A stretch of DNA of 64,000 bases from Acidimicrobiales bacterium (GCA_050744085.1 JBOGGU010000139.1:34809-98808), one strand, 5' to 3'; numbered from the stretch's first letter, positions 2,076-60,358 are shown. The notes: a model not told the origin generated them from the letters alone. Numbers and translations are program-made.

Positions 2076-3464
2076 CTATCCGATGGCGGCGCCGGGGCCC
2101 AGCAGCCGGCGGGTCTCGGCCTCCAGCTTCTCGGGGGTGACGGCACCGACCGCTGTCACTGTCCCATCCAGGTCCACGAACACGTTGGTCGGCACGCCCC
2201 GGATGCCCAGGAGGGCCGCGTAGTCACCGGTCTCGTCGACCAGGACCGGCCCGCTGACCCCCCAGATCTGGCAGAACTGCTCCGCTTCGGTGTGGGCGCC
2301 CACGCCCTCCCACAGATTGACGAGGATTATCTCCAGGCCCGACCGGGCCGTGCGGCGCCTCAGATCCTCGAGAACCGGCGCCTCGGCGTTGCACGGGCCT
2401 CACCAGCTGGCAAAGAAGTTGACGATGTACTTGCGCTCGGCCCACTCCACGCTGTGGCGCAGCTGGCCCGAGTGCAGGTCCGGCAATGAGAACGGCGGCA
2501 GCCTCGTGCCCACCAGCGGGTCAGTGCCGTCGTGGTTGACCGTGCCGGCAGGGCCGACGAGCAGGTCGTCGACCACGGTGAGCGACCCGCTTCCTGCGTT
2601 GGCCACGAGCAGTCGCCGGTCATCGAACGGGTGGACACTCACCCCTCCAGGCGCCCAACCCACGTCGATCCGGGACCACTCGGCCCCGTCCATCCCGACC
2701 ACGCTCAGTGTCCCGTTGCCCCGGTTGCTCACGTAGATCCGGTCTCCCAGGGGGCTGGCCGCCATGCCGACCGGGGCGCTGGCCACTGCCATCTCGCCGA
2801 CCACATCGCCGCTCGGGATGTCGATGCGGGCCACCGTGCTGGCCAGGGAGTTGACCACGTAGACCTCGTCGAGCTGCGGGTTCACCGCGGCCGCGCAGGG
2901 ACCGTTGCCCACTGTGATCCGCCCGATGGGTTCGTTGGCCTCGGTGTCCACGACGGTCACCGAGCCGGTCAGGAAGTTGACGCAGTAGGCCCGTTGGTGG
3001 CGCGGGGACACCGCCACCGCGCCCGCCCCCAGCTCAGCGGGGACTGTGGCCACCACCTCGAGCGTGTCGATGTCGATGACGGTCATGCTCGAGCCCATCG
3101 TGTTCCCGCAGTAGAGGCGCCGGCCCTTCTCGTCGAAGCCCAGCCCGGCTGGGTAGGACCCGACCGCGATCTGGCCTACCACCTCGTCGGTAGTCGTGTC
3201 GATGACCGACACCTGATCGGAGCGAGCGTCGGCGGTGAACACCCGCCCCCCGATCTCGTCCATGACGATGTCGATGGGCTCGGTGCCCACGGGGATGCTC
3301 CCAAGCAGATGCATGGCGTCCAAGTCGACGACGGCGACGGCGTTGGAGCGCGAGCAGGCAACATAGGCCTGCCGGCGGGGTCCGCCGACGACCACTCCCT
3401 CCGGGTCGAGCCCCACCTTGACCTCCCCGACGAGGTGGTGATCCTGAGCCGGCTGGGCGGTCAT
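2076..3464 (-). CDS. YVTN-type beta-propeller repeat protein fused to a TlpA/redoxin thioredoxin-fold domain, with an in-frame TGA at 2400-2402 in place of the first Cys of WCxPC (selenocysteine candidate, or a nonsense pseudogene)
   Basis: The track ORFs 2400..3464 and 2076..2303 share one frame (2400-2076=324). Translation across the junction reads KYIVNFFASW-TGA-GPCNAEAPVLEDL...PVLVDETGDYAALLGIRGVPTNVFVDLDG, a complete redoxin motif set. The N-terminal ~320 aa carry repeated V..D.....V...I.VG..P propeller-like units. Confidence 0.6.
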
Positions 3465-17059: not shown

Positions 17060-18373
17060 TCATGGCGTCCCGTGGGCCAGGTCCTCGAGGAGCGTGTCCA
17101 GGACCAGCTCTTCTTCGACCTCGGCGCCGCTGGTGCGGATCGACGGAGCCAGCGCTGCGTCCCAGCAGGCGTCGGGCACCGGGCCGCGCAGGGGAGGCAG
17201 ATGGGCGCTGGTGGCAACCGCACGGGCCAGGGCCGCCCGGTGGTCCTCTGTGCCAAACCTCCACGGTCGTGCCCCGATCTCCCCGATGACCAGGTTGGCA
17301 ATGGAAACCCCGCCGGCACCGAAGTCGCCGTGATAGGTGAGCCGGGCCCTGCAGTCGACCAACGCCCGCAGGAGGAGCCTGCCCGCAAGCGACGGCCAGC
17401 CCTCCAGGCAGATAACCGCCGCCCCTGTTCCCGCCGCGGCGGCCAGCACCGAGGGGTTCTCGCACGCCCACACCGGGGCCCCGCTCGGGAGCTCCCAGCG
17501 CTCGGCTTGCACTGCTGCCAGCGGGACTGGCAGTGGGATGTCCCCGTCAGCCCACCGGTGTGCGGCTTCGGTCAGGGGCCCGACCGGTCGAGGGCGCAGG
17601 CCGAGGGTCAGCACGGTGGAGGAAGCCTCGTCGAAGATGACCCCCTGGGCGCCCCAAAGGTATCGGCGCTGGGCAGCCCTCAGTGGATCTTCGACTCCGG
17701 CCGAGTGGGCCAGGGCGGCCGTGACCAACCTGCCGGTGGGGCTGGTGTCGTCCAGTGCGTGGGCGTCGCCTAGCACCCGGGCTGCGAGGCGGGACCGGCC
17801 CGCTCGTACCACCAGTGGTAGCTGGCCAAGCACGTCGAGTGCCTGGGTAAGCCGGGCCTCGGGGTTGTCGAGGCGTCGCCAGGCGCCAGTGGCGTCGAGG
17901 CGGGCGAGCCAAGCCTCCAGGGGCGGGTGGCGGCGCAGGGCGTCGTGGTCGAGGAGCCTATCCCAGAGGGCCATCTCAGCGCTTTGCACGGCGGCTCGTT
18001 CGCCGGGCAGGTCGCGAAGCGGACCGACCGCTGCGGTCAGCACCTCGACAAGAGATTGGCCCGTGTGCGAGCGTAGGAGGCGGTCCAGGCGGTCCAGGCG
18101 GACGCGGATCGTGACGCCCCGGCTGCGCACCCCGAGGAGCCGGTCTATGCCGACGCGCTGGTCCGCTCCCAGGTCTCGCAGGTGCACAGTGGCCTCGAGC
18201 CTGCAACCCGACCGCTCCAGCCTCTGGTGGGACGCCAGCCATAGAGGGGTCAGCCGCTTGTCGCACAGCAGCGCCTCGAGGCCCGACGCCCCCGCCCCCG
18301 AACCCCCTGCCCCCGCCGCTCCCGCCCCCGCCGACCCCCCTGCGCCCGCCGACGGGTCAGGCAAAGAGGCCAT
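17060..18373 (-). CDS. jetD: Wadjet JetD (TIGR02679-type, Toprim-like C-terminal domain)
   Basis: It is the last gene of the TIGR02677-02680-type cassette. The C-terminal VWACENPSV ... LTYHGDFGAGG resembles the Toprim E ... DxD region. The start is taken at ATG 18373. Confidence 0.85.
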   Translation of the reverse strand: MASLPDPSAGAGGSAGAGAAGAGGSGAGASGLEALLCDKRLTPLWLASHQRLERSGCRLEATVHLRDLGADQRVGIDRLLGVRSRGVTIRVRLDRLDRLLRSHTGQSLVEVLTAAVGPLRDLPGERAAVQSAEMALWDRLLDHDALRRHPPLEAWLARLDATGAWRRLDNPEARLTQALDVLGQLPLVVRAGRSRLAARVLGDAHALDDTSPTGRLVTAALAHSAGVEDPLRAAQRRYLWGAQGVIFDEASSTVLTLGLRPRPVGPLTEAAHRWADGDIPLPVPLAAVQAERWELPSGAPVWACENPSVLAAAAGTGAAVICLEGWPSLAGRLLLRALVDCRARLTYHGDFGAGGVSIANLVIGEIGARPWRFGTEDHRAALARAVATSAHLPPLRGPVPDACWDAALAPSIRTSGAEVEEELVLDTLLEDLAHGTP

Positions 18374-21300
18374 CGCCGTCAGCCCTGATGGTGGTCGCGT
18401 CTGCGCCAGCTTCCAGCCAAGGGTCGTCCTCACGCCTGGCTTGGCCATCCCACACGAAGCGAAGGGCAGTCACCCCGGGCCGCCCTGGCGTGCGTTCGAG
18501 GTGGTACACGGCGACCGCTGGCACCTCGGGGTAACAGCCCCACTCGGAGTAGTTGGTGAGGACCATGTCGAGGTCCAGGTCGACAAGCATGGCCATGCAG
18601 TCCCCTCGCTGGCTGTCGTCGATGCCGGCGAACGCCTCGTCCAGCATGAGGAGGTGAGGGGCATCGGGCCTCGCGGACGAGTAATAGGCCGCAGTGGCGG
18701 CGAACAGCGGGAGGTGCGCCAGCTTTGCCTGCTCTCCCCCGGAGCCAACGCCCTGGGTGCGAGACGTAAGTCGCTCGTCGCGCCCATTCGAGCGGCGGAA
18801 TATGCAAAAGCGGTGCCAGAGTCGGTAGTCCAGCGCGGCTGAAAGCCGCTCCACCACGTCGGCCCCCTCTCTGTCCTCCCGTGCAGCTCGCACCCGCTCG
18901 GCAAGGAACGCAGCCAGTGCTGCCCGATCAGGCTGGTCGAGCAGCCTCACGTCCTGGCGCAGCAGCCGGACCGCATGCTCGGCGCTTGGGCCGGCGTCGG
19001 ACGCCACCTCCCAAGAAAGGCGCAGGCTGACCCCACTACGGGTCGGGTGGGCTGCCAGCTGCTCGTTCATCCGTTTCGTGAGCGACCAAGCCGCGTGGAC
19101 CTGCTCGCCGAGGTGGGTCCCGACCTCGGTGAGAAGGTGTCGCTCGATCAGCTGGCGCTCCTCGGCCGACAGGGCCTCGCGCCGTCGCCGGATCTGGCTG
19201 CCCAGGGCGGCCGCCAGGGCCGTGGCGCCCACCACGTCGCCGTTCAGGGTGGCGTAGCACACCTCGATCCCTCCGCTCGTGTCCAGGTAAGGATCGAAGT
19301 CGGTGCCGAGCTGGGCGCGCAGGGTGGTCATCTGGTTGTGGAACCGGTTGCTCACCGAGTCCTGAGCAGCCTGGTCGACGCCCACCTCCCGTAAGCGCTC
19401 GTAAGCCGAACGAGCAAACCCCAAACCGGCCGTCTTTTGGGCCAGGTCCAGCTCACCATCGATTGGCCCCAGCGCCAGGACGGCGAGCTCGGTAGCGCCG
19501 AGGCGCGCCAAGGCGTCGAGCGCCCGCTTGCGCTCGGCCTCGTGCTCGACCCTCTCGTCGCTGGTGGCACTCAGCAGGGCGCGGGCGGTGGCCAGGCGGT
19601 CGATCGCCGAGTCCCTGGCGAGGCCGAGGGCTGACCGTTCGGCCTCGGCTGCCTCCCGGGCCGCCGAGAGCTCTCGGTGCCGAGTCACCACGGCGTCGGC
19701 ATCTGCACCGCTCGTGCGGCGCAGCTCATCGGCCTCACCCCGGGCCTGGGTGGAGGTTGCCAGGGCCTCGGCAAGCTGTGTGGCTGCCGCGGCCGCCATT
19801 GCCTCGGCGTCTCGCGCCCGGGCATTGGCCCCAACCGCTGCGCTTCTGGTTGCCAGGGCGTGGCGGGCGTCTCCCGCCAGTGTCGCCAGGGCGCTGCCAT
19901 AGCGAGACAATGCATCGAAAGCCTCATCGAGGCCCGCTGCCGCCCACCCGGCTGCCGCCTCCGCCCGGGCGAGGGCGTCGATTGCCCCTCGACCCTCGGA
20001 TCGAGCTTGGTGCAAGCGCTCGGCGGCTTCGGCGAGCGCCGCCCGAGCCACACCCGCCCCCTCCGTCGTCCGTCGCAAGTCCCCCACGGCGTCTCGCAGC
20101 CCGTCCGCGGAGGGCCAGGCAGACTCGGCGCGGTCCAGGCGGCCCAGCTCCGCAGCCAAGGACTGGTCCCGGGCACCGAGGTTTGCCAGGTCCGAGTCAA
20201 GCACTGCTATCTCGGCTAAAAGGGCTGCGACCCGACGTGCCCGGGCCTGAGCGCGAGCCGATGCCCCCACGTATTCTGCCGACGGCTTGGACCAAGCCCC
20301 GTGCAGGGGGCCAACAGACCACTTCCCGCCGCTCGTGCAGTTCGCACCGGCTCCGGCCACGGCGGCCAGGGCTGCGAGGACAGTCGCCTCATCGAGCGGT
20401 CCTGCCGTCACTGGGACAAGCCCTGCCAGCCCGCCCGCCACAGAGCCGTCCCCCGCCGAGCCGGCCCCTGCCGAGCCGGCCCCTGCCGAGCCGGTCCCCG
20501 CCGAGCCCGTCCTACCCGCCGCGACCCAGGTGTCGAGGGTGTCGGGGTCGAGCACGGCCCCGCTGGGGCTAACCAGGGCGTCCAGCAGCCCGGCAGCCTC
20601 CAAAGCGGCCTCCAGGCCAGCCCGCTCGACGGCATCCAGCTCCGGGGCAAAGTCCACACAAGCCCAAAGGGGAGCACATCCGGCCGCTCGTGCTGCCGGG
20701 CGCCCCGGGCGAGCGGGTGGGGCATCGTCGGCCTCGGCGTCCACCCGGCGCCGTTCGTCCGCTGCCTCAGCTCGCCGTCCTTCCAAACGCCGCCGCTCGG
20801 CTCCCGCGGCCACCTGCTCTTCCCTCAGCGACCCGCGAGCGGGGGCAAGCAACCTAGCCGCCCGCGGCTGTCCACCGGCCATGACCTCGTCCACCACCTG
20901 CTCGGCGTGACCCCCCGCCAAGGACACTTGCCACTCAGCGGCCCAGAACTCCACCGCCTCGGCCAGGGAGCTCCCCGCGGCCTCCAGCCGGGACCGTGCC
21001 TGGGACTCGGCGTCCTCCGCGTCGCCGAGGGCGCTCTCTGCCCGTCGGTGGGAGGCCTCCTCAGAACGGATCCGCTCCAGCGCTGAGCCAGCGGCTGCGG
21101 CGGCAGTCCGCACCGCCAGCAGCGCTTGGTGCCGCCGCTCGACACTTCCCTCCATGGCGAGGACCGAGCGATCCGGCTCGGCCAGCAACCGCCCCTTGTG
21201 CATGTCGTGCTCCGCCCCCAGCCCAGCCGCCTCCGCCAGCGCCACGATGGCCGTCGCGACCTTGTCCCGGCGCTCCTCCGCCGAGGCAGCGTCCGACTCG

Positions 21301-22454
21301 GCCACCTCGCTCTCGGCTAAGGCCGCAACAGAGCGTTCCAGGTCCATTTCGGCGCGTTCCGACCGCGCTGCAGTGTGCCGCTCGGCGTCGGTGGCCCTGC
21401 GCTCCACCTCGTGAAGCGCATGGACCTTGGACATGTCCAACCCGCTCAGCTGCCCGGTCATGGCATCGATCCCGACACTCAGCTCCACCCGGCGGGCTTC
21501 GATCGCCTCCAGCGCGGCCCCAGCTGAGTCCCGCTCGGCTCCCTGGAGCCGCTCGGTCTCGGTCACCTTGTCGAGGCGTGTGTTCGCCGACCGCACCGCG
21601 TCGGCCCGCAACCGGGTCTGCAAGCGGGCGTGGTCGCGGTAATGGCTAAGGAACGCACCGAGTGCCGCAGCGCTCGCCTCTAGGCGCTCGATCTCGGCGG
21701 TGTCTTCGTCCAGGCGGGCAAAGGCCGAGGCAAGGGAATCCATCCTGTGGCGCTCCAGCGGGGGCAGGGCGTCGCTCAGGTACTCACCAAGGCGGCCCAT
21801 GTCCAGCTTCTCGGACAGCTTTGGCCGCCGGAGCCGCAGCAGCAGGTGGAGGAGAGCCTCGTAGCGGTCGGGACCGAGCCCGAACAGGGCCCGGTCCACG
21901 GCAGCCCGGTGCTCGCGCGCCGACGGCGACACCACGCTGCCCTCGGGGAGGGCTGCCTTGAAGCGCTCCGCGGTGAGGGGGATCCCCCGCGGCGCCAGGT
22001 CCAGGTCCACCCCCACGCGAGCTTGGGTGACCGCCCACCAGGGGTCCACCCTCTTGCCTGCGGAGCGAACGGCTCGCATGCCCACGATGCAGGTGACGTA
22101 GTGCTCGTCCCCCTCGGAGTCGAGTTGGCCGAACTCCACCCAACTGTAGCCGATGGCGGAGGAGCGCTCCTCGGAGAACTCGACGAGGTTCCAGTACATG
22201 GTCTTGGAGCGCGAGCCGAACGGGTCCAGCCGCTCCGAGCGGATGTCGCCGTCCAGCACAAAGGGCAACAGCAGCTCCAACGCCTTCGACTTGCCAGCTG
22301 TGTTCTGTCCCCGCAGGATGAGCCGGCCGTCGGCGAACCACAGCTCCTGGTCGTCGTACTCCCAGATGTTGAGGATCCCGGCGCGCAGCGGTCGCAGGCG
22401 CCCCGGCGAGGGGCTGGGAGCCCGGCGCGCAGCTCCGAGGTGGGCGATGCTCAC
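18357..22454 (-). CDS. jetC: Wadjet JetC, SMC-like ATPase (TIGR02680-type)
   Basis: N-terminal Walker A GQNTAGKSKALE. About 900 aa of Ala/Glu/Arg-rich coiled coil follow. The C-terminus has SGGEQAKLA (signature-like) and LLMLDEAFAGIDD (Walker B). GTG 22454 forms a GTGA overlap with the jetB stop. Confidence 0.9.
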   Translation of the reverse strand: MSIAHLGAARRAPSPSPGRLRPLRAGILNIWEYDDQELWFADGRLILRGQNTAGKSKALELLLPFVLDGDIRSERLDPFGSRSKTMYWNLVEFSEERSSAIGYSWVEFGQLDSEGDEHYVTCIVGMRAVRSAGKRVDPWWAVTQARVGVDLDLAPRGIPLTAERFKAALPEGSVVSPSAREHRAAVDRALFGLGPDRYEALLHLLLRLRRPKLSEKLDMGRLGEYLSDALPPLERHRMDSLASAFARLDEDTAEIERLEASAAALGAFLSHYRDHARLQTRLRADAVRSANTRLDKVTETERLQGAERDSAGAALEAIEARRVELSVGIDAMTGQLSGLDMSKVHALHEVERRATDAERHTAARSERAEMDLERSVAALAESEVAESDAASAEERRDKVATAIVALAEAAGLGAEHDMHKGRLLAEPDRSVLAMEGSVERRHQALLAVRTAAAAAGSALERIRSEEASHRRAESALGDAEDAESQARSRLEAAGSSLAEAVEFWAAEWQVSLAGGHAEQVVDEVMAGGQPRAARLLAPARGSLREEQVAAGAERRRLEGRRAEAADERRRVDAEADDAPPARPGRPAARAAGCAPLWACVDFAPELDAVERAGLEAALEAAGLLDALVSPSGAVLDPDTLDTWVAAGRTGSAGTGSAGAGSAGAGSAGDGSVAGGLAGLVPVTAGPLDEATVLAALAAVAGAGANCTSGGKWSVGPLHGAWSKPSAEYVGASARAQARARRVAALLAEIAVLDSDLANLGARDQSLAAELGRLDRAESAWPSADGLRDAVGDLRRTTEGAGVARAALAEAAERLHQARSEGRGAIDALARAEAAAGWAAAGLDEAFDALSRYGSALATLAGDARHALATRSAAVGANARARDAEAMAAAAATQLAEALATSTQARGEADELRRTSGADADAVVTRHRELSAAREAAEAERSALGLARDSAIDRLATARALLSATSDERVEHEAERKRALDALARLGATELAVLALGPIDGELDLAQKTAGLGFARSAYERLREVGVDQAAQDSVSNRFHNQMTTLRAQLGTDFDPYLDTSGGIEVCYATLNGDVVGATALAAALGSQIRRRREALSAEERQLIERHLLTEVGTHLGEQVHAAWSLTKRMNEQLAAHPTRSGVSLRLSWEVASDAGPSAEHAVRLLRQDVRLLDQPDRAALAAFLAERVRAAREDREGADVVERLSAALDYRLWHRFCIFRRSNGRDERLTSRTQGVGSGGEQAKLAHLPLFAATAAYYSSARPDAPHLLMLDEAFAGIDDSQRGDCMAMLVDLDLDMVLTNYSEWGCYPEVPAVAVYHLERTPGRPGVTALRFVWDGQARREDDPWLEAGADATTIRADGDGLFA
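20451..20510. repeat. 15-nt in-frame tandem repeat x4 inside jetC
   Basis: ccccgccgagccggc / ccctgccgagccggc units, which encode GSAGTGSAGAGSAGAGSAGDGS on the minus strand. Confidence 0.85.
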
Positions 22455-23653
22455 CGTTGCTCCGCCTCCGGGGCCCCCGAGGGATCCGAGGGATCCGAGG
22501 CCCACAGCTGAGTGGGCGGCGACGGTCGCACCGCCTCGACGGCTGCGAAACGGGCCGCCCCAGGAAGGGCCTCGATCCCTTCGGCGTGGCGCAGGCAGAG
22601 CCGCGCCGCCACCAGGATGGCTACCGCCTGGCCGGCCAGGACCTCCGCCCCGGCCACGGTGTCAGTGCCCTGCCTCCAGTAGCCGGCGTACTCGACAGCG
22701 AGGCCCTTCACGAACCGGGTCACCTCGTCGGCGGGCCAGCGGGCTGGTTCCCCGCGGCCCTTGCGGGCACGCAGCTCGTCGCAGAGGCGCAGGGCCGTGG
22801 TCTCCGCGGCGCCGTAGTCCGGCCAGCGCAGGTCGGAGAGCTCGCCTGCGGTGTCGACGGCCACCCAACCCTCGGCGCGCACCTCCAGGCTCAGCCCCAC
22901 CTTGTCGGCCAGGACCCGCTCCAGGCGTCCCCGCTGCAAGCGTAGGTACTCGACCTCCTCACGTGACAGGTCCTCGCGGTAGACGACCGGCTCCTCGACC
23001 ATGGCCCTGGTCACGCGGTGGCGCCGGCGCCTGGCCCGGCCGTCCTCGGTGTCTGGGTAGGACTCGGTGGCGACCTCAGCCGGCGAGGCAGCCAGCGACG
23101 GGGGCTGGGGGGCGGTCGGCAGGAGCGAGAGGCGCTCCCTGTCGACCCGGTAGAGGGCGTCCCCGCCGGCCTCACCTCTGACGAAGCGCTCCTCGTCCCC
23201 GTCGGCTCGCTCCAACACCCCGAGATCGGCCGCCGCCTGGACCGCTTGGATGAATATGCGCCTGCTCGCCCCAACCGTCGGCTCCCACTCCAACCCCTCG
23301 ATGACGGCTGCTCGGACCTTGACATCCTCGAACAACGCGGCCAGCGTGGTCCTCTCACCGGCCGCCTCTGCGGCCGCCAGGACCAGGCAGGTGAGGGCGT
23401 ACCGGCGTCCGTCGAACGTCCTGCCGCTCCTGGTAGCAAAGCCCCTCGGGGCGTGGCCGGGACCGGGCAGCTTGGCCAGGCGAACCACCCCAGGCCGGCT
23501 GGCATCGAGGCGGTAGCCGAGCTCGTCGGCGAACCAGCGGGTCAGCTCGGCCCGGTGGCGCCTGGCGAGCGCCAGGGTGGGGCTCCTCCGCTCGACCAGT
23601 GGCTCGGCCAATAGGCCCCTCACTGCGCTGCGTAGCTCGTCCTCCCGCAGCAT
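22451..23653 (-). CDS. jetB: Wadjet JetB (TIGR02678-type, kleisin-associated subunit)
   Basis: Placed by position between jetA and jetC. About 400 aa, acidic and Arg-rich. ATG 23653 shares one base with the jetA stop (TGATG). Confidence 0.8.
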   Translation of the reverse strand: MLREDELRSAVRGLLAEPLVERRSPTLALARRHRAELTRWFADELGYRLDASRPGVVRLAKLPGPGHAPRGFATRSGRTFDGRRYALTCLVLAAAEAAGERTTLAALFEDVKVRAAVIEGLEWEPTVGASRRIFIQAVQAAADLGVLERADGDEERFVRGEAGGDALYRVDRERLSLLPTAPQPPSLAASPAEVATESYPDTEDGRARRRRHRVTRAMVEEPVVYREDLSREEVEYLRLQRGRLERVLADKVGLSLEVRAEGWVAVDTAGELSDLRWPDYGAAETTALRLCDELRARKGRGEPARWPADEVTRFVKGLAVEYAGYWRQGTDTVAGAEVLAGQAVAILVAARLCLRHAEGIEALPGAARFAAVEAVRPSPPTQLWASDPSDPSGAPEAEQR

Positions 23654-25156
23654 CACCCTACCGCCTCTGCTCGGGCGTCGCCGACCACGTCCAGGTGGAT
23701 CGCCATGTCGGGGCAACGCAGCTTGCCCGAGGGCATGGCGATCACCGCCTGGGGGGCGTCGGGGATGGGGCGAAGGGTGACACTGACCAACGGGGTCGAC
23801 GCGCGCCGGGCCCCGTCGCGGCCCGGATGGGCCGACAGGGCCGCGTCGACGACAGCCAGCAGCTGGGAAAACTCCTCGGCGTCCAGCATCCCCAGCTGGG
23901 AGAGCCGGCTGGGTGTGCGTCCAGCAAGACGCGCGGTGGCGCCGGCTGCCTGGCGATGAGCCAACCTTATCCTCGCCAGCCCGGCAGCCTTGGCCACGGC
24001 GTAGTCAGCGGCGCGCCCGGGGCGCCCCGGGCTGGCCCGTTTACCGGTGGCCCTCAGCCGAGGAGCCACCTCGACCGCGGCGGCGTCCCAGAAGCTGGCC
24101 CCACGCTCGGACTCCTCGTCCTCGCAGGCCTCGGCAAAGTGGCGGGCGGGGTAGAGCCCAAACGCACGGTCCCACAATGTGCAGGCCTGCGCGGGTGTCG
24201 AGGTGGCGAACCAGCGTGCAAGTTGGGTGAAGTCGGCCTCCCTGGTCACCCGGCGCAGGTGGCGCCTCGTGAAGCCGGCCGACTGCGGCGAGTATCCGGT
24301 TTAGGGCGTCGAGCATCGCCGTGCGTAGCGACTCAGCAACGGCGGGCTCGGCGCCCTGGGCGACGAACCAGGCGCTCACCCCGGCCCACCGAGTTGCGAA
24401 CGAGCGCCGGACCCCGTCGTCGTCACCGCTGAGCACCGGTGCGGCGTCGGTCTGCGCCGCGAGTTCGATGAGGCCTTCCATCTCCGGATCCAGCTCCGTG
24501 ATCGCAGCGGCGATGAGGGGGACCGTGTCGGCCAGACGGCTCACGAACTCGTCCAAGTAGGTGAACACGGCGCGCTTGTAGGAGGTAAAGGCCTCGTCGT
24601 CGCTGGCAATCTCGGTGGTCTCGACTGCCAGGTCGTTCATGTAACGTGCAGCGTTCTCGGCCAGCTCGGCGAAGCTGGCGAAAAGGTCGATGAGCAGGTG
24701 GTACACCCGAGGGCCGTCCGGGTGCCCGGTGCTCAGCTCTGCGCCGAGGGCCCCGAGCCGCTCCATGATGCCCGGCAGGAGCACGCCCGAGAGCCGGCCG
24801 CTGTCCAGCCCGGCCCTGCGCACCGCACGAATGCCCTCGTGAGCGGCCGCCCCGGCTTCGGTGAGCTGGTACAAGAAGCGCCTTGAGTAGAACGCCTCAA
24901 GCGTCTCGGGAGCCGAGGTGTCGTAGAACCTGGTGACGTTCCCCCAGGCCGCCAGCGCCTCCAGTGCCTCTGCCACCTCCTCGACACCGGCACCTGCCAG
25001 CTCCCGGGCAACCTCTGCCGGGCGAAGCTGCAACCGGTAGCGCTCCCTGGCTCCGACCAGGGCCTCCACCAGCGGTACGTACAGCCAGGCCTTCTCCGCC
25101 ACGGCATACGCGAACACCCGCAAGCTGGGATCGTGAGGGAGCGGCGCATCGGGCAT
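23653..25156 (-). pseudogene. jetA: Wadjet JetA (TIGR02677-type), interrupted by a 1-nt frameshift near 24261-24271
   Basis: ATG 25156 follows aagggggg. The N-terminal 297 aa (MPDAPLPHDPSLRVFAYAVAEK ... ILAAVGRLHE) are in one frame. The continuation RHLRRVTREADFTQLARWF ... runs to the stop at 23653 in another frame. The total length of 1504 nt is not a multiple of 3. Confidence 0.8.
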
Positions 25157-25243
25157 CCCCCCTTTATAGCCAACGGGTGTGACATGGTGGTGGACCTGTG
25201 CGTAACCTGAACGAGATGGTCGACCCCCATTAGGCTGGCGCGT

Positions 25244-25798
25244 GTGGCCACGCTGGCCGATCTCGGGGTGGAGGCCAGGTGCTGCGTGCGCTGTGCGCTG
25301 GCCAAGGGCAGGACCAACGTCGTGTTCGGCGCTGGGGACGCCTCGGCGGGGCTGATGTTCGTGGGAGAGGGCCCGGGCCACGACGAGGACATCGCCGGGC
25401 TTCCGTTCGTGGGGCGCTCCGGCAAGCTGCTGGACCGGCTGATGGCCGAGGAGCTGGGCATCGACCGTTCGGCGTGCTACATAGCAAACGTGGTCAAGTG
25501 CCGCCCACCCGGCAACCGCGACCCCCTGCCCGACGAGATCGCGAGCTGCCGGCCCTACCTGGACGCCCAGGTGGACCTGATCGACCCCCGGGTGGTCGTC
25601 ACCCTGGGCAACTTCGCCACCCGGGCCCTCCTGGACACCACCGAGCGCATCAGCGACCTACGGGGCAGGGTGTACCCGTTCAGGGGGCGAGCCCTGGTCC
25701 CCACTTACCACCCTGCTGCGGCGCTCCGAGCCGGTGGTGCGATGCTGGCGGCGATGAGGGCCGACCTGATCCGGGCCAAGCGGGAGCTCGCCCGATGA
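25244..25798 (+). CDS. udg: Uracil-DNA glycosylase, family 4 (Fe-S type)
   Basis: Cys-rich N-terminus (CCVRCALAKGRT) and the GEGPGHDEDIAGLPFVGRSGKLLD motif. Confidence 0.85.
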   Translation: MATLADLGVEARCCVRCALAKGRTNVVFGAGDASAGLMFVGEGPGHDEDIAGLPFVGRSGKLLDRLMAEELGIDRSACYIANVVKCRPPGNRDPLPDEIASCRPYLDAQVDLIDPRVVVTLGNFATRALLDTTERISDLRGRVYPFRGRALVPTYHPAAALRAGGAMLAAMRADLIRAKRELAR

Positions 25799-27625: not shown

Positions 27626-28758
27626 GCCCAGCCAGACCGAGCACGGCCGGAGCGAGCCCCGCCAGACCGAGCCCCGCCGGAACGAGCAAAGCCGTCCTGG
27701 GCATCGAGACCTCCTGCGACGAGACCGCAGCCGCAGTGGTCCTGGCCGGGGTCGACGTGGCGTCGTCGGTGGTCTCCAGCCAGATAGACCTCCACGCCCG
27801 CTTCGGTGGGGTCGTGCCCGAGCTTGCCGGTCGCGCACACGTCGAGCTGCTCACCCCGGTCGTTGCCGAGGCGCTCGTCGAAGCAGGCCTCGACCCCCGC
27901 CCAGCCGGCGCCGTGTCGCCCGGTGCGCCGTCGGCCCCGGCCGCACTGGCTGCGGTCGCCGCCACGGTCGGGCCGGGCCTCGTCGGCTCCCTCCTCGTGG
28001 GGGTCAGCGCGGCCAAGGCCATGGCCCTGGTGTGGGGGGTGCCCTTCGTGGGCGTAAACCACCTCGAAGCTCACCTGTACGCCGCCTCCCTGGAAGACCC
28101 CAGCATCGAGCTTCCGATGATCGTCCTGCTGGTCAGCGGCGGCCACACGATGCTCATCGAGATGGCCGACCGGGGCAGCTACCGCCTCCTCGGCCAGACC
28201 CTCGACGACGCCGCGGGCGAGGCGTTCGACAAGGTGGCCAGGTTCCTGGGCCTGGGCTACCCCGGTGGCCCCGAGATCGACCGGCTCGCAACGGTTGGCG
28301 ACCCCGAGGCCATCCGCTTCCCGCGGGCGATGATGGACGGTGGGTGGGATTTCTCCTTCAGCGGCATCAAGACCTCGGTGACCCACTACGTGAGGGCTCA
28401 TCCCGACGTGTCGTCCGCCGACGTGGCGGCCAGCTTCCAGCGGGCAGTCGTCGACGTGCTGGTCGCCAAGGCCCGCCGCGCTGCCAAGGAGCTGGGCGCC
28501 CGGGCCATCTGCCTGGCTGGGGGGGTGGCAGCCAACACTGAGCTGCGGGAAACCACAGTGGCGGCCTGCGAGGCCGACGGCATCCGTGCGTTCGTGCCGA
28601 GCCGGGCGATGTGCACGGACAACGCGGCGATGGTGGCCGCGGCGGGTTGGTGGCGGCTGCTCTCCGACGGGCCGAGCTCACTCGCCACGGGTGCCGACCC
28701 GGCGATGGGACTGGAGTGGGCAAGGGGGCTTGGCTCCACCGCGCCAAATTTTTCCTAA
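27622..28758 (+). CDS. tsaD: tRNA N6-adenosine threonylcarbamoyltransferase TsaD
   Basis: LGIETSCDETAAAV, VNHLEAHL and SGGHT. The N-terminal ~22 aa extension is encoded by a 30-nt duplication (27625-27684). Confidence 0.92.
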   Translation: MSPARPSTAGASPARPSPAGTSKAVLGIETSCDETAAAVVLAGVDVASSVVSSQIDLHARFGGVVPELAGRAHVELLTPVVAEALVEAGLDPRPAGAVSPGAPSAPAALAAVAATVGPGLVGSLLVGVSAAKAMALVWGVPFVGVNHLEAHLYAASLEDPSIELPMIVLLVSGGHTMLIEMADRGSYRLLGQTLDDAAGEAFDKVARFLGLGYPGGPEIDRLATVGDPEAIRFPRAMMDGGWDFSFSGIKTSVTHYVRAHPDVSSADVAASFQRAVVDVLVAKARRAAKELGARAICLAGGVAANTELRETTVAACEADGIRAFVPSRAMCTDNAAMVAAAGWWRLLSDGPSSLATGADPAMGLEWARGLGSTAPNFS

Positions 28759-28832: not shown

Positions 28833-30827
<1,995 letters not shown>

Positions 30828-30912: not shown

Positions 30913-31485
30913 TTAGGGGCGTAGGTCGGCTGGGTCGAAGGTGACGGGGAATGGGTCGGACAGAATCATCCGTGCACCTGGGCGTCCAGCGGCTACCTCT
31001 ACGTAGCTGGTGCCGTCCAGGCGGTAAGCGTAGACAGAGGGGCCATCGTCCAGCTCGACCCGCCAGAACGCCGGGATGCCGGACTGGGCGTAGAGGCTGG
31101 GCTTGGTCAAGCGGTCCTTGGCCCCAGATCCAGGCGACACGATCTCCACCACGAGACGGACCAGGCTGGCCTCGAGAATGCCGGATCGGTTGGCCAGGGC
31201 AGGTTCCCGCTCGGCGACGAGAACGTCGGGGATGAACACGCTCCCGCCGTCCAGGCGTACCCCAGTGGCCTCGATGACGATCAGCCCTGACGGCACACGC
31301 GCCTCCAAGGCCGAAGCGAGCATGAAACTGGTGCGTTGATGCAAGGGGGGCGGCGGCGGGCTCACCACCAGGCTCCCCGCGAGCAGCTCGTAGCGCTGGG
31401 ACTCGGGTAGGGAAGCCAGATCGTCCTCGGTCCAAGGGCCGTCGTGCAGGGCGAGGGAGGATGCCACTCCACCAGCATGCCACAT
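30913..31485 (-). CDS. Uma2 (DUF820) family PD-(D/E)xK endonuclease-like protein
   Basis: 190 aa with a YELL.G.LVVSP start and the core IPDVLV ... LVVEIVSPGS ... D...K..LYA..GIP.FW.V, which is the D...E.xS...D..K pattern of Uma2. Confidence 0.75.
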   Translation of the reverse strand: MWHAGGVASSLALHDGPWTEDDLASLPESQRYELLAGSLVVSPPPPPLHQRTSFMLASALEARVPSGLIVIEATGVRLDGGSVFIPDVLVAEREPALANRSGILEASLVRLVVEIVSPGSGAKDRLTKPSLYAQSGIPAFWRVELDDGPSVYAYRLDGTSYVEVAAGRPGARMILSDPFPVTFDPADLRP

Positions 31486-31489
31486 GGGA

Positions 31490-32062
31490 TCAGGCAGGGC
31501 CTAGGAGCACATCGACGTTCAGGGCCACCCCCGGAAGGGTCTCGACCACCAGGGTGTCGCTCCGCCGGGCACGGCGGGTCGTTGCGTAGCCGTCGGGTCG
31601 AGGGTCAGCGAACACCCGGACCTCCATGGCGGTTACATCCACCACCCAAAGCTGTGGCACCCCGGCCCTGGCGTAGCGGGGAGCTTTGTAGTTGACGTCC
31701 CAGTTGAGGGTGGAGTCCGCCACCTCGATGATCAGGAACACGTCGCTGGCCATCGCTATGTGGCCGTCGGGCGAATCCAGGCCGTGCTTCACCAGCGCCA
31801 AGTCCGGCTCAGGCTCGGAGTAGTCGTCCAGCTGGACCGGGCACTGCACCGAGACCAGTGCTCGGTCCCCCACCGCGTTGACGAGCAGGTGGTTGAGGCG
31901 TAGAACACAGGCATAGTGCGGATGCCCCATGGCGGCCATCTGGAAGACCTCCCCGTCGAGCAGCTCGACGTGCGAATCGCCCTGGAAGAGCCCGGCCTCG
32001 GCCATGCGGCGCCACTCCTCGACACTGAACGCGTGACGGGCGGGAGCCTGCTCGAGAACCAC
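31490..32062 (-). CDS. Uma2 (DUF820) family endonuclease-like protein
   Basis: 190 aa. VELLDGEV, EPDLALV, LIIEVADST...D...K...YARAGVPQLWVVD. Confidence 0.8.
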   Translation of the reverse strand: MVLEQAPARHAFSVEEWRRMAEAGLFQGDSHVELLDGEVFQMAAMGHPHYACVLRLNHLLVNAVGDRALVSVQCPVQLDDYSEPEPDLALVKHGLDSPDGHIAMASDVFLIIEVADSTLNWDVNYKAPRYARAGVPQLWVVDVTAMEVRVFADPRPDGYATTRRARRSDTLVVETLPGVALNVDVLLGPA

Positions 32063-45083: not shown

Positions 45084-45656
45084 GTGCTCGAACAGGACCG
45101 GCGATACCGCTTCAGCGTGAAGGAGTGGCACCTGATCGGCGACACCGGGGTCTTTCTCGGGGGTCCGCGCTTGGAGCTGATCGACGGGGAGGCGTACGAG
45201 AAGATGACACCAGGTCCGCCGCACCTCGGTTGTGTCAACCGGTTGACTCGTCTGCTGGTCCCGGCCGTCGGGCGCCGTGCATTGGTATCGGTCCAGAACC
45301 CGGTCCGACTCGACGACTACTCGGAGCCAGAGCCCGATGTCGCGCTCCTGCACCCCCGTGCCGACGACTACTCGGGCGCCACGCCCACGGGCAACGACGT
45401 GTACCTGCTGATCGAGGTCTCGGACAGCTCACTGCGCTTCGACGTGGACTTCAAATCCCAGCGCTACGCCAAGGCGGGTGTGCCGGCACTCTGGGTGATC
45501 GACCTGACCGGGGACGAGATCCTGGTTATGACTGGCCCGGGCCCGATGGGGTTCGCGACCGCTCACCACGCTCGCAGGGGCGAGACCCTGGCGGTGGACG
45601 ACCTGCCTGGCGCGGGATTCAGCGTGGATGAGCTACTGGGGCCTGAACGCCGATGA
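45084..45656 (+). CDS. Uma2 (DUF820) family endonuclease-like protein
   Basis: [17 protein letters not shown] and LLIEVSDSS...D...K...[13 protein letters not shown]. It is a close paralog of 31490..32062. Confidence 0.8.
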
Positions 45657-53685: not shown

Positions 53686-56172
53686 CTAGCTCGCAGGGGA
53701 CAACCTCACTGCACAGACTTTGAACTCGGGCATTCGGCTGTCCGGATCGAGGGCTGAAATGGTGAGTATGTTGGCTGCCTTGCGACCGCCCCAGTGGAAC
53801 GGCGCGAAGACCGTATCGGGTCGTATGTCGCGGGTTACGTCGACCTTGAAGCGGACTGAGCCACGCCGGCTGTGTGCGATCACCTCCGCGCCGTCCACTA
53901 CGCCTATCGTGCTGGCCAGCTCGGGGTGCATCTGGAGGCACGGTTCTGGCTGGAGCCGGCCCAGGCGGTCCACCGCACGGGTCTGTGTCCCGGAATTGTA
54001 GTGCTCCTGGTAGCGGCCGGTGGTGAAGTACAACGGGTATGAGGCGTCGGGCTCCTCAGCCGAAGCCCGGTAACTCACAGGAACAAACCGGGCCATGCCG
54101 TCGGGGTGGGCGAATCGTTCACCGAACAGCCGCGGAGTGCCTGGATGATCGAGGCCGGGGCAGGGCCAGAAGATACCCTTGGAGGCATCGATTCGTTCGT
54201 AGGTGATTCCGGAGTAATCGGCCCTGGCCCCGGCGCTGGCGCGGCGAAGCTCGCCAAATACCGCCTCGGGTCCTTCGAAGCGGAACTGGGAGCCGTGGCC
54301 CAACCGCTCAGCCAGAGCGCAGAGCACCTCGATGTCGCTACGCACGCCCTTTGGCGGGTCAGTCGCCCGCCGGCGACGTACGACCCTGCCCTCGAGGTTG
54401 GTCATGGTGCCGTCCTCCTCGGCCCACTGGGTCACCGGCAGGACTATGTCGGCCAGAGCGGTGGTATGGCTCGGGAAGGGGTCGAGCACGGCTAGACAGT
54501 CCAGCTCTGCCAACTGTTCGCTGACCCGACCAGAGTCAGGAGATGCGACGGCCAGGTTGGAGCCGACTACCAAGAGTGCCCGCAAACCATGCTCCGTGCC
54601 GATACTGTCGAGCATTTCCACGGCACTGCTCCCCGCACCAGGCAAGGAGTCCGGATCGATCCCCCACACGGCGGCGATCTTTGCCCGATCTGCGCCTTCG
54701 GTGATCGAGCGATAGCCGGGCAGCTGGTCGGCCTTCTGGCCGTGCTCGCGGCCGCCCTGGCCGTTTCCCTGGCCGGTGATGCATCCGTAGCCGCTCGCAG
54801 GACGACCCGCTTTACCCAGCGCAAGCATGAGATTGATCAGGGCGGCCACGCTGTCGGTGCCCTTCGACTGCTGCTCAGGCCCCCTCCCGGTGAGGAGCAT
54901 CGACGCCGGAGCTCCGGCAATCGCCTCGAGCGACGCCCGGAGGAGGGATTCGGGCACCCCTGTGACGCGCTCCACCCTCGCCGGGAACCAGCCCTGCACC
55001 GATTGGCGGGTCTGCTCCCAGCCCACGGTGCGGGCCTCGATGTATTCGAGGTCGAGCATCTCTCGGGCGACCGCCAGCTGCAAAAGGCCCATCGCCAGCG
55101 CCAGGTCGGTCCCGGGAATGGGTTGGAGGTGGAGTTTGGCCAGGCTGGCGGTCTTGGTGTGGCGAGGGTCGACGACGATGAGCTGGCCCCCTCTGGCTCG
55201 CTGCTCCTCGAACCAGCCCATGAGGGGGGGCATCGTGTCGGCCGGGTTGGCGCCCCACAGCGTGACGACGTCGGCTTGGGCGATGTCCGACACCGGGAAC
55301 GGCATGCCCCGGTCCACCCCGAATGCCCGGTTCTGGGCGGTGGCCGCCGAGGACATGCAGTAGCGACCGTTGTAGTCGATGTTCGATGTGCCGAGCGCTA
55401 CCCGGGCAAACTTGCCCAACAGGTACGCCTTCTCGTTGGTGAGGGCACCACTGCCGAAGACCCCGACCGCGTGGCTGCCGAAGCGTGCTTGAACTCGCGA
55501 GATCCGGGCAGCCAACTCGTCGAGCGCGTCGTCCCAGCTGGTCTCGTGCATCCGCCCGTCCCTGAGCCGCACTGTGGGCCTGAGTAGGCGGTCGGCGCGC
55601 TTGAGCAGCTCGGGCGAGGTCCAGCCCTTGATGCACATGCCGCCCCGGTTGACCGGGAAGCTCGGGTCCGACACGACTTCGACGGACCCGATCCCCACCG
55701 TGGTCCCCTCGACCGCCGGGGCAGTGCTGGTGTCGACCCGTAGGTGCATCCCGCACTGGAGAGCGCAGTACGGACAATGGGTGGCGGTCGTCGCCAGGCC
55801 TGCCGGCGGCGACGCCGCCCTGCTTACGGCGAGGACCTCCACAGATCCCCCCCAGACCCGGACCGGCCACACCCTCACCCCCGGTGACACTCCGTCGAGG
55901 CACGCTCCGCTGGTGAGGTCGAAGCGGTGCTTGTAGATCGGGGACGCCACGTATGCAACGTCAGCCTGGGAGCCGAGCAAGCCTCTGGCCAGCACGTTGA
56001 CACCCGAGACCGGGTCGCGGTTGTCCACGGCGCGAAGCTGGGGCGCCCGGCCCTCGGCACCGTCGGCAACCAGGAAGACCGCTACCTGCTCGTCACCGAC
56101 CAGGGCCGCAACACCGCGCCCTACGTCGAGCTCTGCCAGCGAGCAGATGCGCACCCATCTCCGGGCGCTCAC
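53686..56172 (-). CDS. Fusion protein: NirD-like Rieske-fold small subunit (N-terminal ~115 aa) plus assimilatory nitrate reductase catalytic subunit (molybdopterin oxidoreductase, NasA/NasC-like)
   Basis: The N-terminus WVRICSLAELDVGRGVAALVGDEQVAVF ... SPIYKHRFDLTSGACLD is NirD-like. It is followed by the HCPYCALQCG 4Fe-4S motif and a full MopB-type body in one uninterrupted ORF. GTGA overlap with the nirB stop. Confidence 0.85.
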   Translation of the reverse strand: MSARRWVRICSLAELDVGRGVAALVGDEQVAVFLVADGAEGRAPQLRAVDNRDPVSGVNVLARGLLGSQADVAYVASPIYKHRFDLTSGACLDGVSPGVRVWPVRVWGGSVEVLAVSRAASPPAGLATTATHCPYCALQCGMHLRVDTSTAPAVEGTTVGIGSVEVVSDPSFPVNRGGMCIKGWTSPELLKRADRLLRPTVRLRDGRMHETSWDDALDELAARISRVQARFGSHAVGVFGSGALTNEKAYLLGKFARVALGTSNIDYNGRYCMSSAATAQNRAFGVDRGMPFPVSDIAQADVVTLWGANPADTMPPLMGWFEEQRARGGQLIVVDPRHTKTASLAKLHLQPIPGTDLALAMGLLQLAVAREMLDLEYIEARTVGWEQTRQSVQGWFPARVERVTGVPESLLRASLEAIAGAPASMLLTGRGPEQQSKGTDSVAALINLMLALGKAGRPASGYGCITGQGNGQGGREHGQKADQLPGYRSITEGADRAKIAAVWGIDPDSLPGAGSSAVEMLDSIGTEHGLRALLVVGSNLAVASPDSGRVSEQLAELDCLAVLDPFPSHTTALADIVLPVTQWAEEDGTMTNLEGRVVRRRRATDPPKGVRSDIEVLCALAERLGHGSQFRFEGPEAVFGELRRASAGARADYSGITYERIDASKGIFWPCPGLDHPGTPRLFGERFAHPDGMARFVPVSYRASAEEPDASYPLYFTTGRYQEHYNSGTQTRAVDRLGRLQPEPCLQMHPELASTIGVVDGAEVIAHSRRGSVRFKVDVTRDIRPDTVFAPFHWGGRKAANILTISALDPDSRMPEFKVCAVRLSPAS

Positions 56173-58742: not shown

Positions 58743-58744
58743 GC

Positions 58745-60358
58745 TCAGGACTTCCTTCCGGCCATCCTGGGCCCGGCCATCCTGGGCCCGGCCATCCTGG
58801 GTCGGAGCCGGCGGCTCACGACGCATCCGTCCGGGGCGAGGAAGGCCTGGCGGTCGCTGCGGGCGAGGGTCGACTTGTGGCGGATGTACACGGCCCAAGT
58901 GAGTGTGCCGAGGACCACGTAAGCGGCGATGAAGGCGTACAGGGCTGGAACCGACCAGGCCGAGTGTGCCGTGGCCGCGGCCACCTTCTCAGCGGGGGTC
59001 TTGGCGGCCTTCTCGAGGGCCGAGATGCCGAGGCTGGCCTGGCGGAGCACCACCTGGACCAACACCCCTCCGAATGCCCCGATTGCTCCGGCGATGCCGA
59101 TGACAGCCGCCGCCCGGCGCTTGAACGCGACGGTGTTGAGCACCCGGTCACCACCCGCGGCCACCGCGAGGGCGGCAAAGACCGAGGGGATAATCTTGTA
59201 AACCGAACCGTTGCCCATGCCCGTCACGGCGAATACGGCCATGTAGGAGCTGAAGAAGAGTACAAAGTTGCGATCCTCCACCCCAACGATGGCGGTCGCG
59301 GTGAACAGCGCCATCCCGGCGAACATCGCCAGGGTGACCCGCGCCCCGCCGATCCGGTCGGCCCACAGGCCCCCGATCGGCCGAGACAGAGAGCCGATCA
59401 GCGCTCCGAGGAATCCGAGCCCAGCCAGGTAGGTGGCGATGAACGGGTGCATGCCCAAGAACTCCGGGAAGGTGTTCTTGATCACCAGGGGCAGGGCAAA
59501 GGAGAATCCGATGAACGACCCGAAGGTGCCGATGTACAGCAGGGAGATAATCCAGGTTTGGGGGTAGCGCAGAGCAGCCCGATACGCGCTGGTGTCGGCC
59601 TTTGCCTGGGTCAGGCTGTCCATGTACCCCCAGGCAGCGAAGGCGGCAACGATGATGAAGGGGAGGAACAGGATCCCGGCATAGGAGATGTGAACCGCGT
59701 GCGTGCTGAGCTTGAGTGCGGCGGTGGGAACCCCGATGATCACCACCAAGGGCACCAAGAACTGGGCCGTTGCCACGCCGAGGTTCCCCCCGGCGGCGTT
59801 GAGGCCGAGTGCCCAGCCCTTGGCGCGCTCGGGGTAGAAGTAGGAGATGTTGGCCATCGAGGAGGCGAAGTTGGCACCTCCGCAGCCCGCCGTCGCAGCA
59901 CAGACGAACAGCACCCAAAGCTGGGTGGAGTGGCCTTGGTGCGCCAACCAGCCGCTGGGCACCAGGAATGCCAGTAATAGGGCGGGGACCAGGAGGACCG
60001 CGCCGCTCATCGTCGTCCACGCTCTGCCTCCGAAGCGGGGGATGGCAAAGGTGTACGGGATCCGCAACATCGAACCGATCAAGTTCGGGGTGAGGGTCAG
60101 CAGGAACAGCTGGGATACACTCAGGTCGATGCCGATGTCGGCCAGGTTGAGCACCACGATCGTCCATACGATCCAGACGCAGAAGCCGACGTGGTCGGTG
60201 AACATGGACAGGATGAGGTTCCTTCGGGCGATGCGCTTGCCCCTGGCTTGCCAGAATGCCTCTTCGTCGGGTTCCCAGTGATCGATCCAGTGCTTACCTC
60301 GAGAGGCCGAGCCTCGTCGCCCGCCCCCGACCTCCGATGGCTTGGTGATTGTGGCCAT
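58745..60358 (-). CDS. narK: NarK/NasA-type nitrate/nitrite transporter (MFS, NNP family)
   Basis: 12-TMS profile and a Gly-rich NNP-type segment (LNAAGGNLGVA). The C-terminal tail PRMAGPRMAGPRMAG is encoded by a 15-nt x3 repeat (58759-58803). Confidence 0.88.
   Translation of the reverse strand: MATITKPSEVGGGRRGSASRGKHWIDHWEPDEEAFWQARGKRIARRNLILSMFTDHVGFCVWIVWTIVVLNLADIGIDLSVSQLFLLTLTPNLIGSMLRIPYTFAIPRFGGRAWTTMSGAVLLVPALLLAFLVPSGWLAHQGHSTQLWVLFVCAATAGCGGANFASSMANISYFYPERAKGWALGLNAAGGNLGVATAQFLVPLVVIIGVPTAALKLSTHAVHISYAGILFLPFIIVAAFAAWGYMDSLTQAKADTSAYRAALRYPQTWIISLLYIGTFGSFIGFSFALPLVIKNTFPEFLGMHPFIATYLAGLGFLGALIGSLSRPIGGLWADRIGGARVTLAMFAGMALFTATAIVGVEDRNFVLFFSSYMAVFAVTGMGNGSVYKIIPSVFAALAVAAGGDRVLNTVAFKRRAAAVIGIAGAIGAFGGVLVQVVLRQASLGISALEKAAKTPAEKVAAATAHSAWSVPALYAFIAAYVVLGTLTWAVYIRHKSTLARSDRQAFLAPDGCVVSRRLRPRMAGPRMAGPRMAGRKS

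Follow-up and report, generated by a model that had tools for sequence, protein, structure and literature searches.

Does the TGA codon that interrupts a minus-strand gene near one end of this stretch of DNA terminate a protein, or does it specify selenocysteine (Sec) at an active site? The gene lies in 64,000 nucleotides of an Acidimicrobiales bacterium (GCA_050744085.1 JBOGGU010000139.1:34809-98808), which we call the window. An ATG at 3464 opens an open reading frame (ORF) of 354 codons whose final residues are ...KYIVNFFASW (EWAERKYIVNFFASW). The TGA at 2402-2400 follows directly after W354, and the unchanged frame past it encodes GPCNAEAPVLEDLRRRTARSGLEIILVNLWEG... (GPCNAEAP...), with 107 codons up to a TAG at 2078-2076 (2076..2399 = 324 nucleotides). 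With the TGA counted as residue 355, the read-through product has 462 residues, and the peptide across the predicted Sec site reads FFASW-U-GPCNAEAPVLEDLR. A preliminary description, made from the sequence of the window, had proposed that this TGA occupies the first position of a W-C-G-P-C-type redox motif in a fusion of a YVTN propeller with a redoxin; its coordinates and translation agree with ours.

We consider it highly probable (roughly 0.88) that the in-frame TGA is a genuine, conserved Sec codon at the active site of a propeller/thioredoxin-fold fusion family. With the same confidence, we interpret the region from 3464 to 2076 as a single gene for a 462-residue selenoprotein, with the propeller at the N terminus and a ResA/TlpA-like domain at the C terminus. 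Four lines of evidence carry this reading: the TGA is found at every orthologous locus compared, distantly related proteins carry Cys at the homologous position, a tRNA for Sec (tRNA-Sec) adjoins the gene in seven loci, and synonymous sites are constrained in the RNA that follows the UGA.

For domain and PDB searches, the TGA was written as Cys in the query. The C-terminal part matches the Pfam families Redoxin (PF08534; residues 318-445, 53.9 bits versus a cutoff of 26.6) and AhpC-TSA (PF00578; 47.8 bits versus a cutoff of 26), and both matches span the TGA. Further Pfam matches to this part are PF13098 and PF13905, and its NCBIfam match is NF002854 (ResA). The closest PDB match is ResA (4NMU, E 2.8e-12), with an alignment of 136 residues that crosses the Sec site. 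The N-terminal 300 residues match the YVTN repeat TIGR02276 in 4 stretches (122 bits versus a cutoff of 27.85) as well as PF21783 (54 bits versus a cutoff of 27.1), and their closest PDB match is 1L0Q (E 1.4e-38). The product thus scores above the curated cutoffs for both the TlpA/ResA/DsbE-like fold and the YVTN/YncE propeller.

The TGA codon among orthologs

The read-through product was searched against 5.8 billion proteins. About 55 clusters with 50-63% identity were recovered, each covering just the first 75% of the query, and all 25 intact sequences retrieved terminate at ...(N/D)(F/V)FASW. Two low-ranking matches (P0057 and P0058) appear to be frameshifted. We then compared the DNA of 85 orthologous loci with 49-63% protein identity, comprising a 2.77-Mb contig (ERZ25039491), a Streptomyces coelicoflavus locus, three assemblies with the identical protein (which GCA_974217515.1 carries), and 80 metagenome contigs that were found by the propeller part alone. 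The TGA follows ...FASW in 85/85 loci, and TGC, TGT, TAA or TAG occurs at this codon in 0/85, which is far more than chance would produce. Every locus that extends far enough carries an open frame of 105-125 codons for the redoxin domain after the TGA. Amino acid conservation is highest at residues 344-367 (0.89-0.97), P425 in the redoxin domain is almost invariant among homologs, and the G+C content of third codon positions (GC3) is 0.90 upstream of the TGA and 0.90-0.91 downstream.

When the C-terminal part served as the query, the downstream pieces were found to be called as separate ORFs of 90-150 residues. The starts of these calls vary and no start codon is conserved after the TGA. Some of the pieces bear the name 'TlpA family protein disulfide reductase, partial [Acidimicrobiales bacterium]'. 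The database copies examined, including NCBI records, consist of a truncated 'YVTN/YncE propeller' protein and a separate 'partial TlpA' fragment. Because the halves are annotated as separate proteins, a widespread predicted selenoprotein of Acidimicrobiales is invisible to current annotation. The family comes from Acidimicrobiales-type actinobacteria, and gene callers split its gene in two at the TGA.

The closest Cys-containing proteins are stand-alone redoxins that are only 34-41% identical, and no Cys-form ortholog above 41% identity turned up when proteins were searched with the C-terminal part as query. A scan of contigs that used the full read-through protein as query recovered distant Cys redoxins alone, matched on WCGPCNAE, and these were reused as data on the Sec/Cys pair. 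In total, 81 distant stand-alone redoxins carry WCGPCN at the homologous position. The TGA in all orthologs together with Cys in these distant homologs therefore constitutes the Sec/Cys pair that serves as a criterion for bacterial selenoprotein genes, and the comparison of this column in relatives that the preliminary description had recommended comes out in favor of its proposal. The close family seems to exist in the TGA form alone.

Several features of individual family members are of additional interest. Nearly all homologs have an N-terminal extension of 30-60 residues that bears a G-P-x-C-(R/L)-V-D motif and that the window protein lacks. Three propeller cysteines are invariant or nearly so: C37 (in ACSRSN), C161 and C190. 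In the window, an upstream ORF of 11 codons (MHVGPDGTIAT*) runs on the minus strand from an ATG at 3496 to a TGA at 3463-3461, and a Shine-Dalgarno-like AAGGGAG lies at 3509-3503. The TGA of this small ORF shares nucleotides with the start codon of the selenoprotein gene (ATGA), an arrangement suggestive of translational coupling.

A 1.5-kb JGI contig (Ga0613033_045769; L168, 742-1263) encodes the Sec-redoxin domain on its own and shares the TGA and the hairpins described below. This domain is 62% identical to the C-terminal part of the window protein, and no propeller is found upstream in any frame. The JGI gene call rendered the TGA of this locus as Trp (P0121), an artefact that stems from the code table applied. 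The sole ortholog in a named cultured genus is that of Streptomyces coelicoflavus (GCA_042734225.1; L002, 7945-16123). It is flanked by Transposase_mut and phage-integrase genes, and this location suggests horizontal acquisition.

RNA structures downstream of the UGA

The RNA alignment covered the region between the UGA and +87 in 66 distinct sequences, and our numbering counts the U of the UGA as nucleotide 1. Folds computed for each sequence reveal two hairpins, HP1 and HP2, that recur in most of the 66. The HP1 consensus, CGCGG-A-GGCGC-C-GUUCC-[UCGA]-GGAGC-U-GCGCC-G-CCGCG, describes an interrupted hairpin at nucleotides 15-52 that starts 11 nucleotides after the UGA and places its loop 28 nucleotides from it. 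The core of the window copy is GGCGCC(2382-2377)-GGUUC-[UCGA 2371-2368]-GGAUC-UGA-GGCGCC(2359-2354). No sequence in the alignment has an insertion or deletion in HP1. Its pairing is maintained in 86.2% of cells, versus 29-58% when the partner is slid, and its covariation score is 0.148 versus 0.107 for shuffled alignments (0/500 shuffles reach it). Pair 31-42, for example, is seen as UG, CG, GC, GU and UA. With a mean minimum free energy (MFE) of -21.6 kcal/mol, HP1 is the more stable of the two hairpins.

The preliminary description had drawn a stem-loop in this region from the pairing of GGCCCGUGC with GCACGGCC and of GGCGCC with GGCGCC around a 17-nucleotide apical region. All of these strings are present, and the inner GGCGCC/GGCGCC pairing lies within HP1. 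The outer GGCCCGUGC/GCACGGCC pairing is not conserved in orthologs, being formed in only 52.7% of cells with covariation equal to that of shuffles, and a fold of the single sequence is no better than shuffles. The apical region is actually a 5-base-pair helix with a UCGA loop, and the second hairpin, with its GGUC loop, had been overlooked.

HP2 begins 2-5 nucleotides after HP1 and has a mean MFE of -11.2 kcal/mol. It occurs as GAGGCCC-[GGUC]-GGGCCUC or in a form shifted by one nucleotide, CAGACC-[GGUCN]-GGUCUG. The loop region CCGGUC is almost invariant, and the arms vary in a compensatory manner (GAGGCCC/GGGCCUC, GAGACCC/GGGUCUC, CGCCC/GGGCG and CAGACC/GGUCUG). The paired changes include G-C to A-U, G-C to C-G, and A-U to G-C, and some are made through amino acid substitutions. 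In a permutation test that takes the register into account, the arms of a sequence form 5.95 base pairs with each other versus 4.23 when combined with arms taken from different sequences (0/2000 permutations).

Codon usage in HP2 provides further evidence. The loop is encoded by Arg-Ser, with CGG for Arg in 61/62 sequences versus 31% gene-wide; therefore, G is fixed at a four-fold degenerate site in the loop. In the 3' arm, Gly is encoded by GGT in 30/62 sequences versus 8% gene-wide, and GGT occurs in the haplotypes whose 5' arm has A at the paired position. Synonymous diversity reaches its minimum for the whole gene just after the UGA (ratio 0.44). As judged from these alignments, synonymous change is constrained in the RNA after the UGA, which forms two hairpins that are conserved with covariation.

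Other computational approaches were less informative. RNAalifold failed to yield a usable consensus from the codon alignment, since clades differ by one nucleotide in the register of HP2, and it was replaced by the per-sequence folds and the permutation test. A family covariance model (R1) has the target as its sole match in the window, at 85.6 bits, and the next best score is 16.8 bits. This model also gives Cys homologs 12-41 bits through shared sequence and leaves the HP2 register unresolved (65% paired), and is therefore no independent test of the structure. When the first 11 nucleotides, which a ribosome would cover, are left out, the MFE fold of the window sequence consists of HP1 (2382-2354) and HP2 (2349-2336, loop GGUC 2344-2341).

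Sec-decoding capacity and competing explanations

A tRNA-Sec gene (ARAGORN; 94 nucleotides, anticodon UCA) is located 150-450 base pairs upstream of the ortholog on the opposite strand in seven loci, all from one clade (L107, L111, L117, L141, L165, L166 and L167). Rfam RF01852 confirms the tRNA in 4/4 loci scanned, with 66.8-67.8 bits versus a gathering score of 47. This linkage proves that carriers of the gene have selC. In this clade the gene order (e.g. L165 7333-13758) is NifU, FAA hydrolase, CMD, UDG, selC, the selenoprotein gene, peptidase S8 and MerR, with selC immediately next to the gene that is apparently its client. The CMD gene near selC was considered as a second source of a selenocysteine insertion sequence (SECIS) and was rejected, being an AhpD-like Cys form (CxxC). 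No functional partner is conserved in the neighborhood across clades, hence gene context provides no hint of a pathway.

TGA is the commonest stop codon in the window, where it ends 22/38 genes. Thus, UGA is not reassigned genome-wide and any recoding must be local. Sec machinery is reported in 42% of mycobacterial genomes, and it is documented in an Acidimicrobiia-related lineage, the order Actinomarinales (bioRxiv 10.64898/2026.04.03.716425).

The bacterial SECIS consensus calls for a loop of 3-9 nucleotides with G at its two initial positions, usually followed by G or U, together with a stem of 4-16 base pairs, a distance of 16-37 nucleotides from UGA to loop, and an MFE of -7.5 kcal/mol or lower (PMC13188914). 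Some bacterial elements depart from the rule of G in the loop, as reviews accept (PMC13188914). Neither hairpin alone agrees with the whole of this consensus. HP1 fits it in spacing (28 nucleotides), stem and energy, and HP2 fits it in its GGUC(N) loop, its 5-7-base-pair stem and its energy.

Several observations speak against decoding of the UGA as Sec through these structures. The HP1 loop (UCGA or AUCGAG) lacks G in its first two positions and a conserved GU, and HP2 lies 52-55 nucleotides from the UGA, outside the 16-37-nucleotide range. The Rfam SECIS models give no match in 2280-2440 even at E <= 10, although Rfam is said to cover bacterial SECIS elements poorly. Nucleotides +15 to +81 are the most stable stretch of the gene, with synonymous recoding giving just z = -1.47, and the fold energy of the single sequence is no better than that of shuffles (z = -1.08, or z = 0.06 without the first 11 nucleotides). 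The evidence for the hairpins is therefore comparative, not thermodynamic; single-sequence folding statistics are uninformative in G+C-rich sequence. Furthermore, the tRNA-Sec linkage is confined to one syntenic clade and counts as one evolutionary event, and the window copy of the gene has no adjoining tRNA-Sec. In agreement with the preliminary description, which had noted no selA, selB, selD or tRNA-Sec in the window, SelA, SelB or SelD domains are found in 0/40 window ORFs scanned (groEL, groES and several shorter predicted ORFs were outside the scan), and the 64-kb window has neither a tRNA gene nor any Rfam family match.

How might these two hairpins act? The SECIS of Escherichia coli fdhF has the loop A-GGUC-U, in which G23 and U24 are essential, and the Moorella thermoacetica fdhA element is comparable. 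The numbering agrees with the published description of a 17-nucleotide stem-loop 11 nucleotides from the UGA, with U17, G23 and U24 essential (PMC8659212). The conserved structure of the new family likewise begins 11 nucleotides after the UGA and includes a short G+C-rich hairpin with G-U in its apical loop, namely HP2 with CC-GGUC(N)-GG. In contrast to fdhF, the GGUC loop is located at nucleotides 59-64 from the U of the UGA rather than at 22-25, the conserved 38-nucleotide HP1 intervenes, and a bulged U is not evident. Without the 38 nucleotides of HP1, the HP2 G-U would fall at nucleotides 22-26, near E. coli G23/U24. By this analogy, HP2 is our candidate for the hairpin that SelB would bind, and the coincidence of position is why we regard HP1 as a possible compact spacer. 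A bolder proposal is that the SECIS is bipartite, such that the distant HP2 works only since HP1 folds away and thereby restores the spacing in space, and that the family is obligately Sec-dependent and linked to selC in one clade. We advance this combined proposal tentatively, at distinctly less than even odds.

The strongest competing explanation accepts the selenoprotein gene and assigns the SECIS function to HP1, leaving HP2 as an accessory or unrelated element or as a by-product of the conserved R-S-G-L peptide. This assignment has the merit that HP1 obeys the rules for spacing, stem and energy, is the more stable hairpin and never varies in length, and its unorthodox loop could be one of the accepted exceptions (PMC13188914). 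However, the loop that resembles known elements, GGUC, belongs to HP2, where its G is kept at a four-fold degenerate site in 61/62 sequences, whereas the HP1 loop offers neither the initial G nor a conserved GU. The HP2 arms also covary by means of amino acid changes, which goes beyond protein constraint alone. We consider HP1 unlikely to be the functional SECIS.

Selenocysteine insertion, whichever hairpin directs it, might also be questioned on the grounds that an inserted amino acid is not readable from sequence alone. The UGA could be read through with a near-cognate Trp, Cys or Arg under stimulation by a hairpin, or translation could restart after it. Consistent with such a scenario, Sec machinery was not found among the scanned ORFs of the window, and the JGI call P0121 does have W at the TGA, although through the code table. 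Yet the codon is that of the nucleophilic Cys in CxxC, a residue whose replacement by Trp or Arg would abolish enzyme activity, and the change to TGC or TGT is a one-step, cost-free swap that is seen in 0/85 loci. The tRNA-Sec next to the gene in seven loci and the SelB-type loop of HP2 likewise argue for Sec, and a restart is opposed by the lack of a conserved start codon 3' of the TGA. Read-through or restart without Sec is thus very improbable. The last alternative, that the TGA is a recent nonsense mutation (as the preliminary description had allowed, along with a base-call error), a pseudogene lesion, or a sequencing or assembly error in the window, has only its a priori possibility in its favor, with an 11% chance by our own estimate (approximate) of a 107-codon open frame in random sequence of 69% G+C, and is excluded by the TGA in 85/85 loci from independent assemblies spanning 49-63% protein identity, by the conserved downstream domain with its GC3 of 0.90, and by three independent assemblies that carry the identical protein.

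Relation to known proteins, proposed function and genomic context

Selenoproteins with a thioredoxin fold and a UxxC motif, including TlpA, peroxiredoxin-like and thiol:disulfide-interchange types, are a known class, and its families were predicted from a Sec/Cys pair plus a stem-loop after the UGA (PMC13188914, PMC9312934). The new family shares with them a Sec at the N-terminal Cys of CxxC in a TlpA/redoxin-type fold as well as the Pfam families PF08534, PF00578, PF13098 and PF13905. It differs in that the domain is C-terminal to a YVTN propeller of about 300 residues, that the SECIS layout is outside the consensus, and that no Cys-form ortholog above 41% was found. The word 'propeller' occurs in neither review (PMC13188914, PMC9312934), and their lists do not name the family; we set it apart from the listed families by description. 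Among NCBIfam selenoprotein models, none reaches its cutoff on the read-through protein. One of them, NF041054 ('ResA-like WAxxUGC motif-containing protein'), describes a ResA-like selenoprotein and matches weakly over the redoxin domain. Membership in that family was rejected on both score (50 bits versus a cutoff of 300) and motif, since WAxxUGC and FASW-U-GPC differ in the position of Sec.

Within the ResA, TlpA and DsbE (CcmG) group, ResA supplies the top PDB and NCBIfam matches (4NMU and NF002854), and the GVP cis-proline loop is present in the window protein. Members of that group lie outside the cytoplasm on a membrane anchor and use Cys in variants of CxxC, whereas the window protein has no anchor or signal peptide by inspection and carries a thioredoxin-type W-x-G-P-C motif with a predicted Sec first. 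A thioredoxin fold is also joined to a beta-propeller in NHLRC2-type proteins, which are mentioned here as a lead only. These have the reverse domain order, with the thioredoxin-like domain first and then a six-bladed NHL beta-propeller, and they use Cys, not Sec. From these comparisons we classify the predicted family as new within the known UxxC class, with three unusual features, namely the propeller fusion, the lack of any close Cys form, and a SECIS region of two hairpins that departs from the consensus rule on spacing or loop.

We propose that Sec-tRNA(Sec) and SelB would read the UGA at 2402-2400 as selenocysteine, guided by RNA structure within the next 70 nucleotides of coding sequence. 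HP2 might bind SelB, and the folded HP1 might be placed at the mRNA entrance as a compact spacer. By inspection, neither a signal peptide nor a membrane segment is visible, and the N-termini of the window protein and its homologs are polar or acidic. The protein is therefore taken as cytoplasmic, where it would act as a selenol/thiol-disulfide reductase. W-U-G-P-C is probably a reducing motif of the thioredoxin type in which Sec makes the attack. In this scheme, the propeller would hold or contain a substrate whose disulfide or oxidized sulfur is attacked by Sec355, and Cys358 would resolve the selenenylsulfide. The propeller might thus supply the site for a substrate or partner.

The window contains several other gene systems (Table 1). 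A complete type II Wadjet anti-plasmid system occupies 17060-25381 on the minus strand, with PADLOC E-values of 1e-75 to 0 and Pfam matches to DUF2397, DUF2398 and SbcC Walker B. Three paralogous genes for putative endonucleases of the Uma2 family (PF05685) are located at 30913-32062 (-) and 45084-45656 (+) and include a tandem pair. The minus strand also carries, at 53686-58898, two genes that form a pair for assimilatory nitrate/nitrite reduction. The segment 26109-30827 (+) includes a TsaD-like paralog, probably tsaB, upstream of tsaD, and tsaD and groES are parted by one in-frame TAA (28756-28758). Other in-frame stops with coding sequence on both sides were rejected as recoding candidates because they separate adjacent genes (tsaD/groES; MOSC/membrane protein) or lie in a non-coding frame.

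Table 1. Coordinates of the predicted selenoprotein gene, its RNA hairpins and other genes of the window
Feature	Position	Strand	Basis or remarks
Coding sequence part 1, residues 1-354	2403..3464	-	seven-bladed YVTN/YncE-type beta-propeller (~residues 10-300), linker, first strand of redoxin, end ...YIVNFFASW
UGA, predicted Sec residue 355, first position of W-U-G-P-C redox motif	2400..2402	-	comparative
Coding sequence part 2, residues 356-462 plus TAG	2076..2399	-	remainder of ResA/TlpA/DsbE-like thioredoxin-fold domain, including resolving Cys358 and GVP cis-proline loop
HP1, conserved 38-nucleotide interrupted hairpin	2351..2388	-	pairing, covariation, per-sequence folds
HP2, GGCCC-[GGUC 2344-2341]-GGGCC, G+C-rich hairpin of 5-7 base pairs	2336..2349	-	arms covary, loop kept
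JetA2	24041-25381	-	PADLOC
JetB2	22451-23716	-	PADLOC
JetC2	18357-22505	-	PADLOC
JetD2	17060-18448	-	PADLOC
groEL	29160-30827	+	gene order and length, not scan
Rieske-fused molybdopterin oxidoreductase	53686-56172	-	
NirB-like NAD(P)H nitrite reductase	56169-58898	-	
HemD/response-regulator fusion	60516-61646		near nitrate/nitrite pair

Fusion to a propeller is an architecture that the predicted family brings to the thioredoxin-fold selenoproteins, and the family's apparent existence in the Sec form only is uncommon for bacterial selenoproteins. The linkage to selC in one clade provides an easy marker, at the genome level, of which uncultured soil actinobacteria use Sec. In addition, the properties of the consensus SECIS are split between two conserved hairpins, which makes the family a natural test of the distance from the UGA at which a SelB-binding hairpin can be located. 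If the bipartite arrangement is true, bacterial Sec decoding would depend on three-dimensional rather than linear distance, and gene finders based on SECIS elements would systematically overlook such genes.

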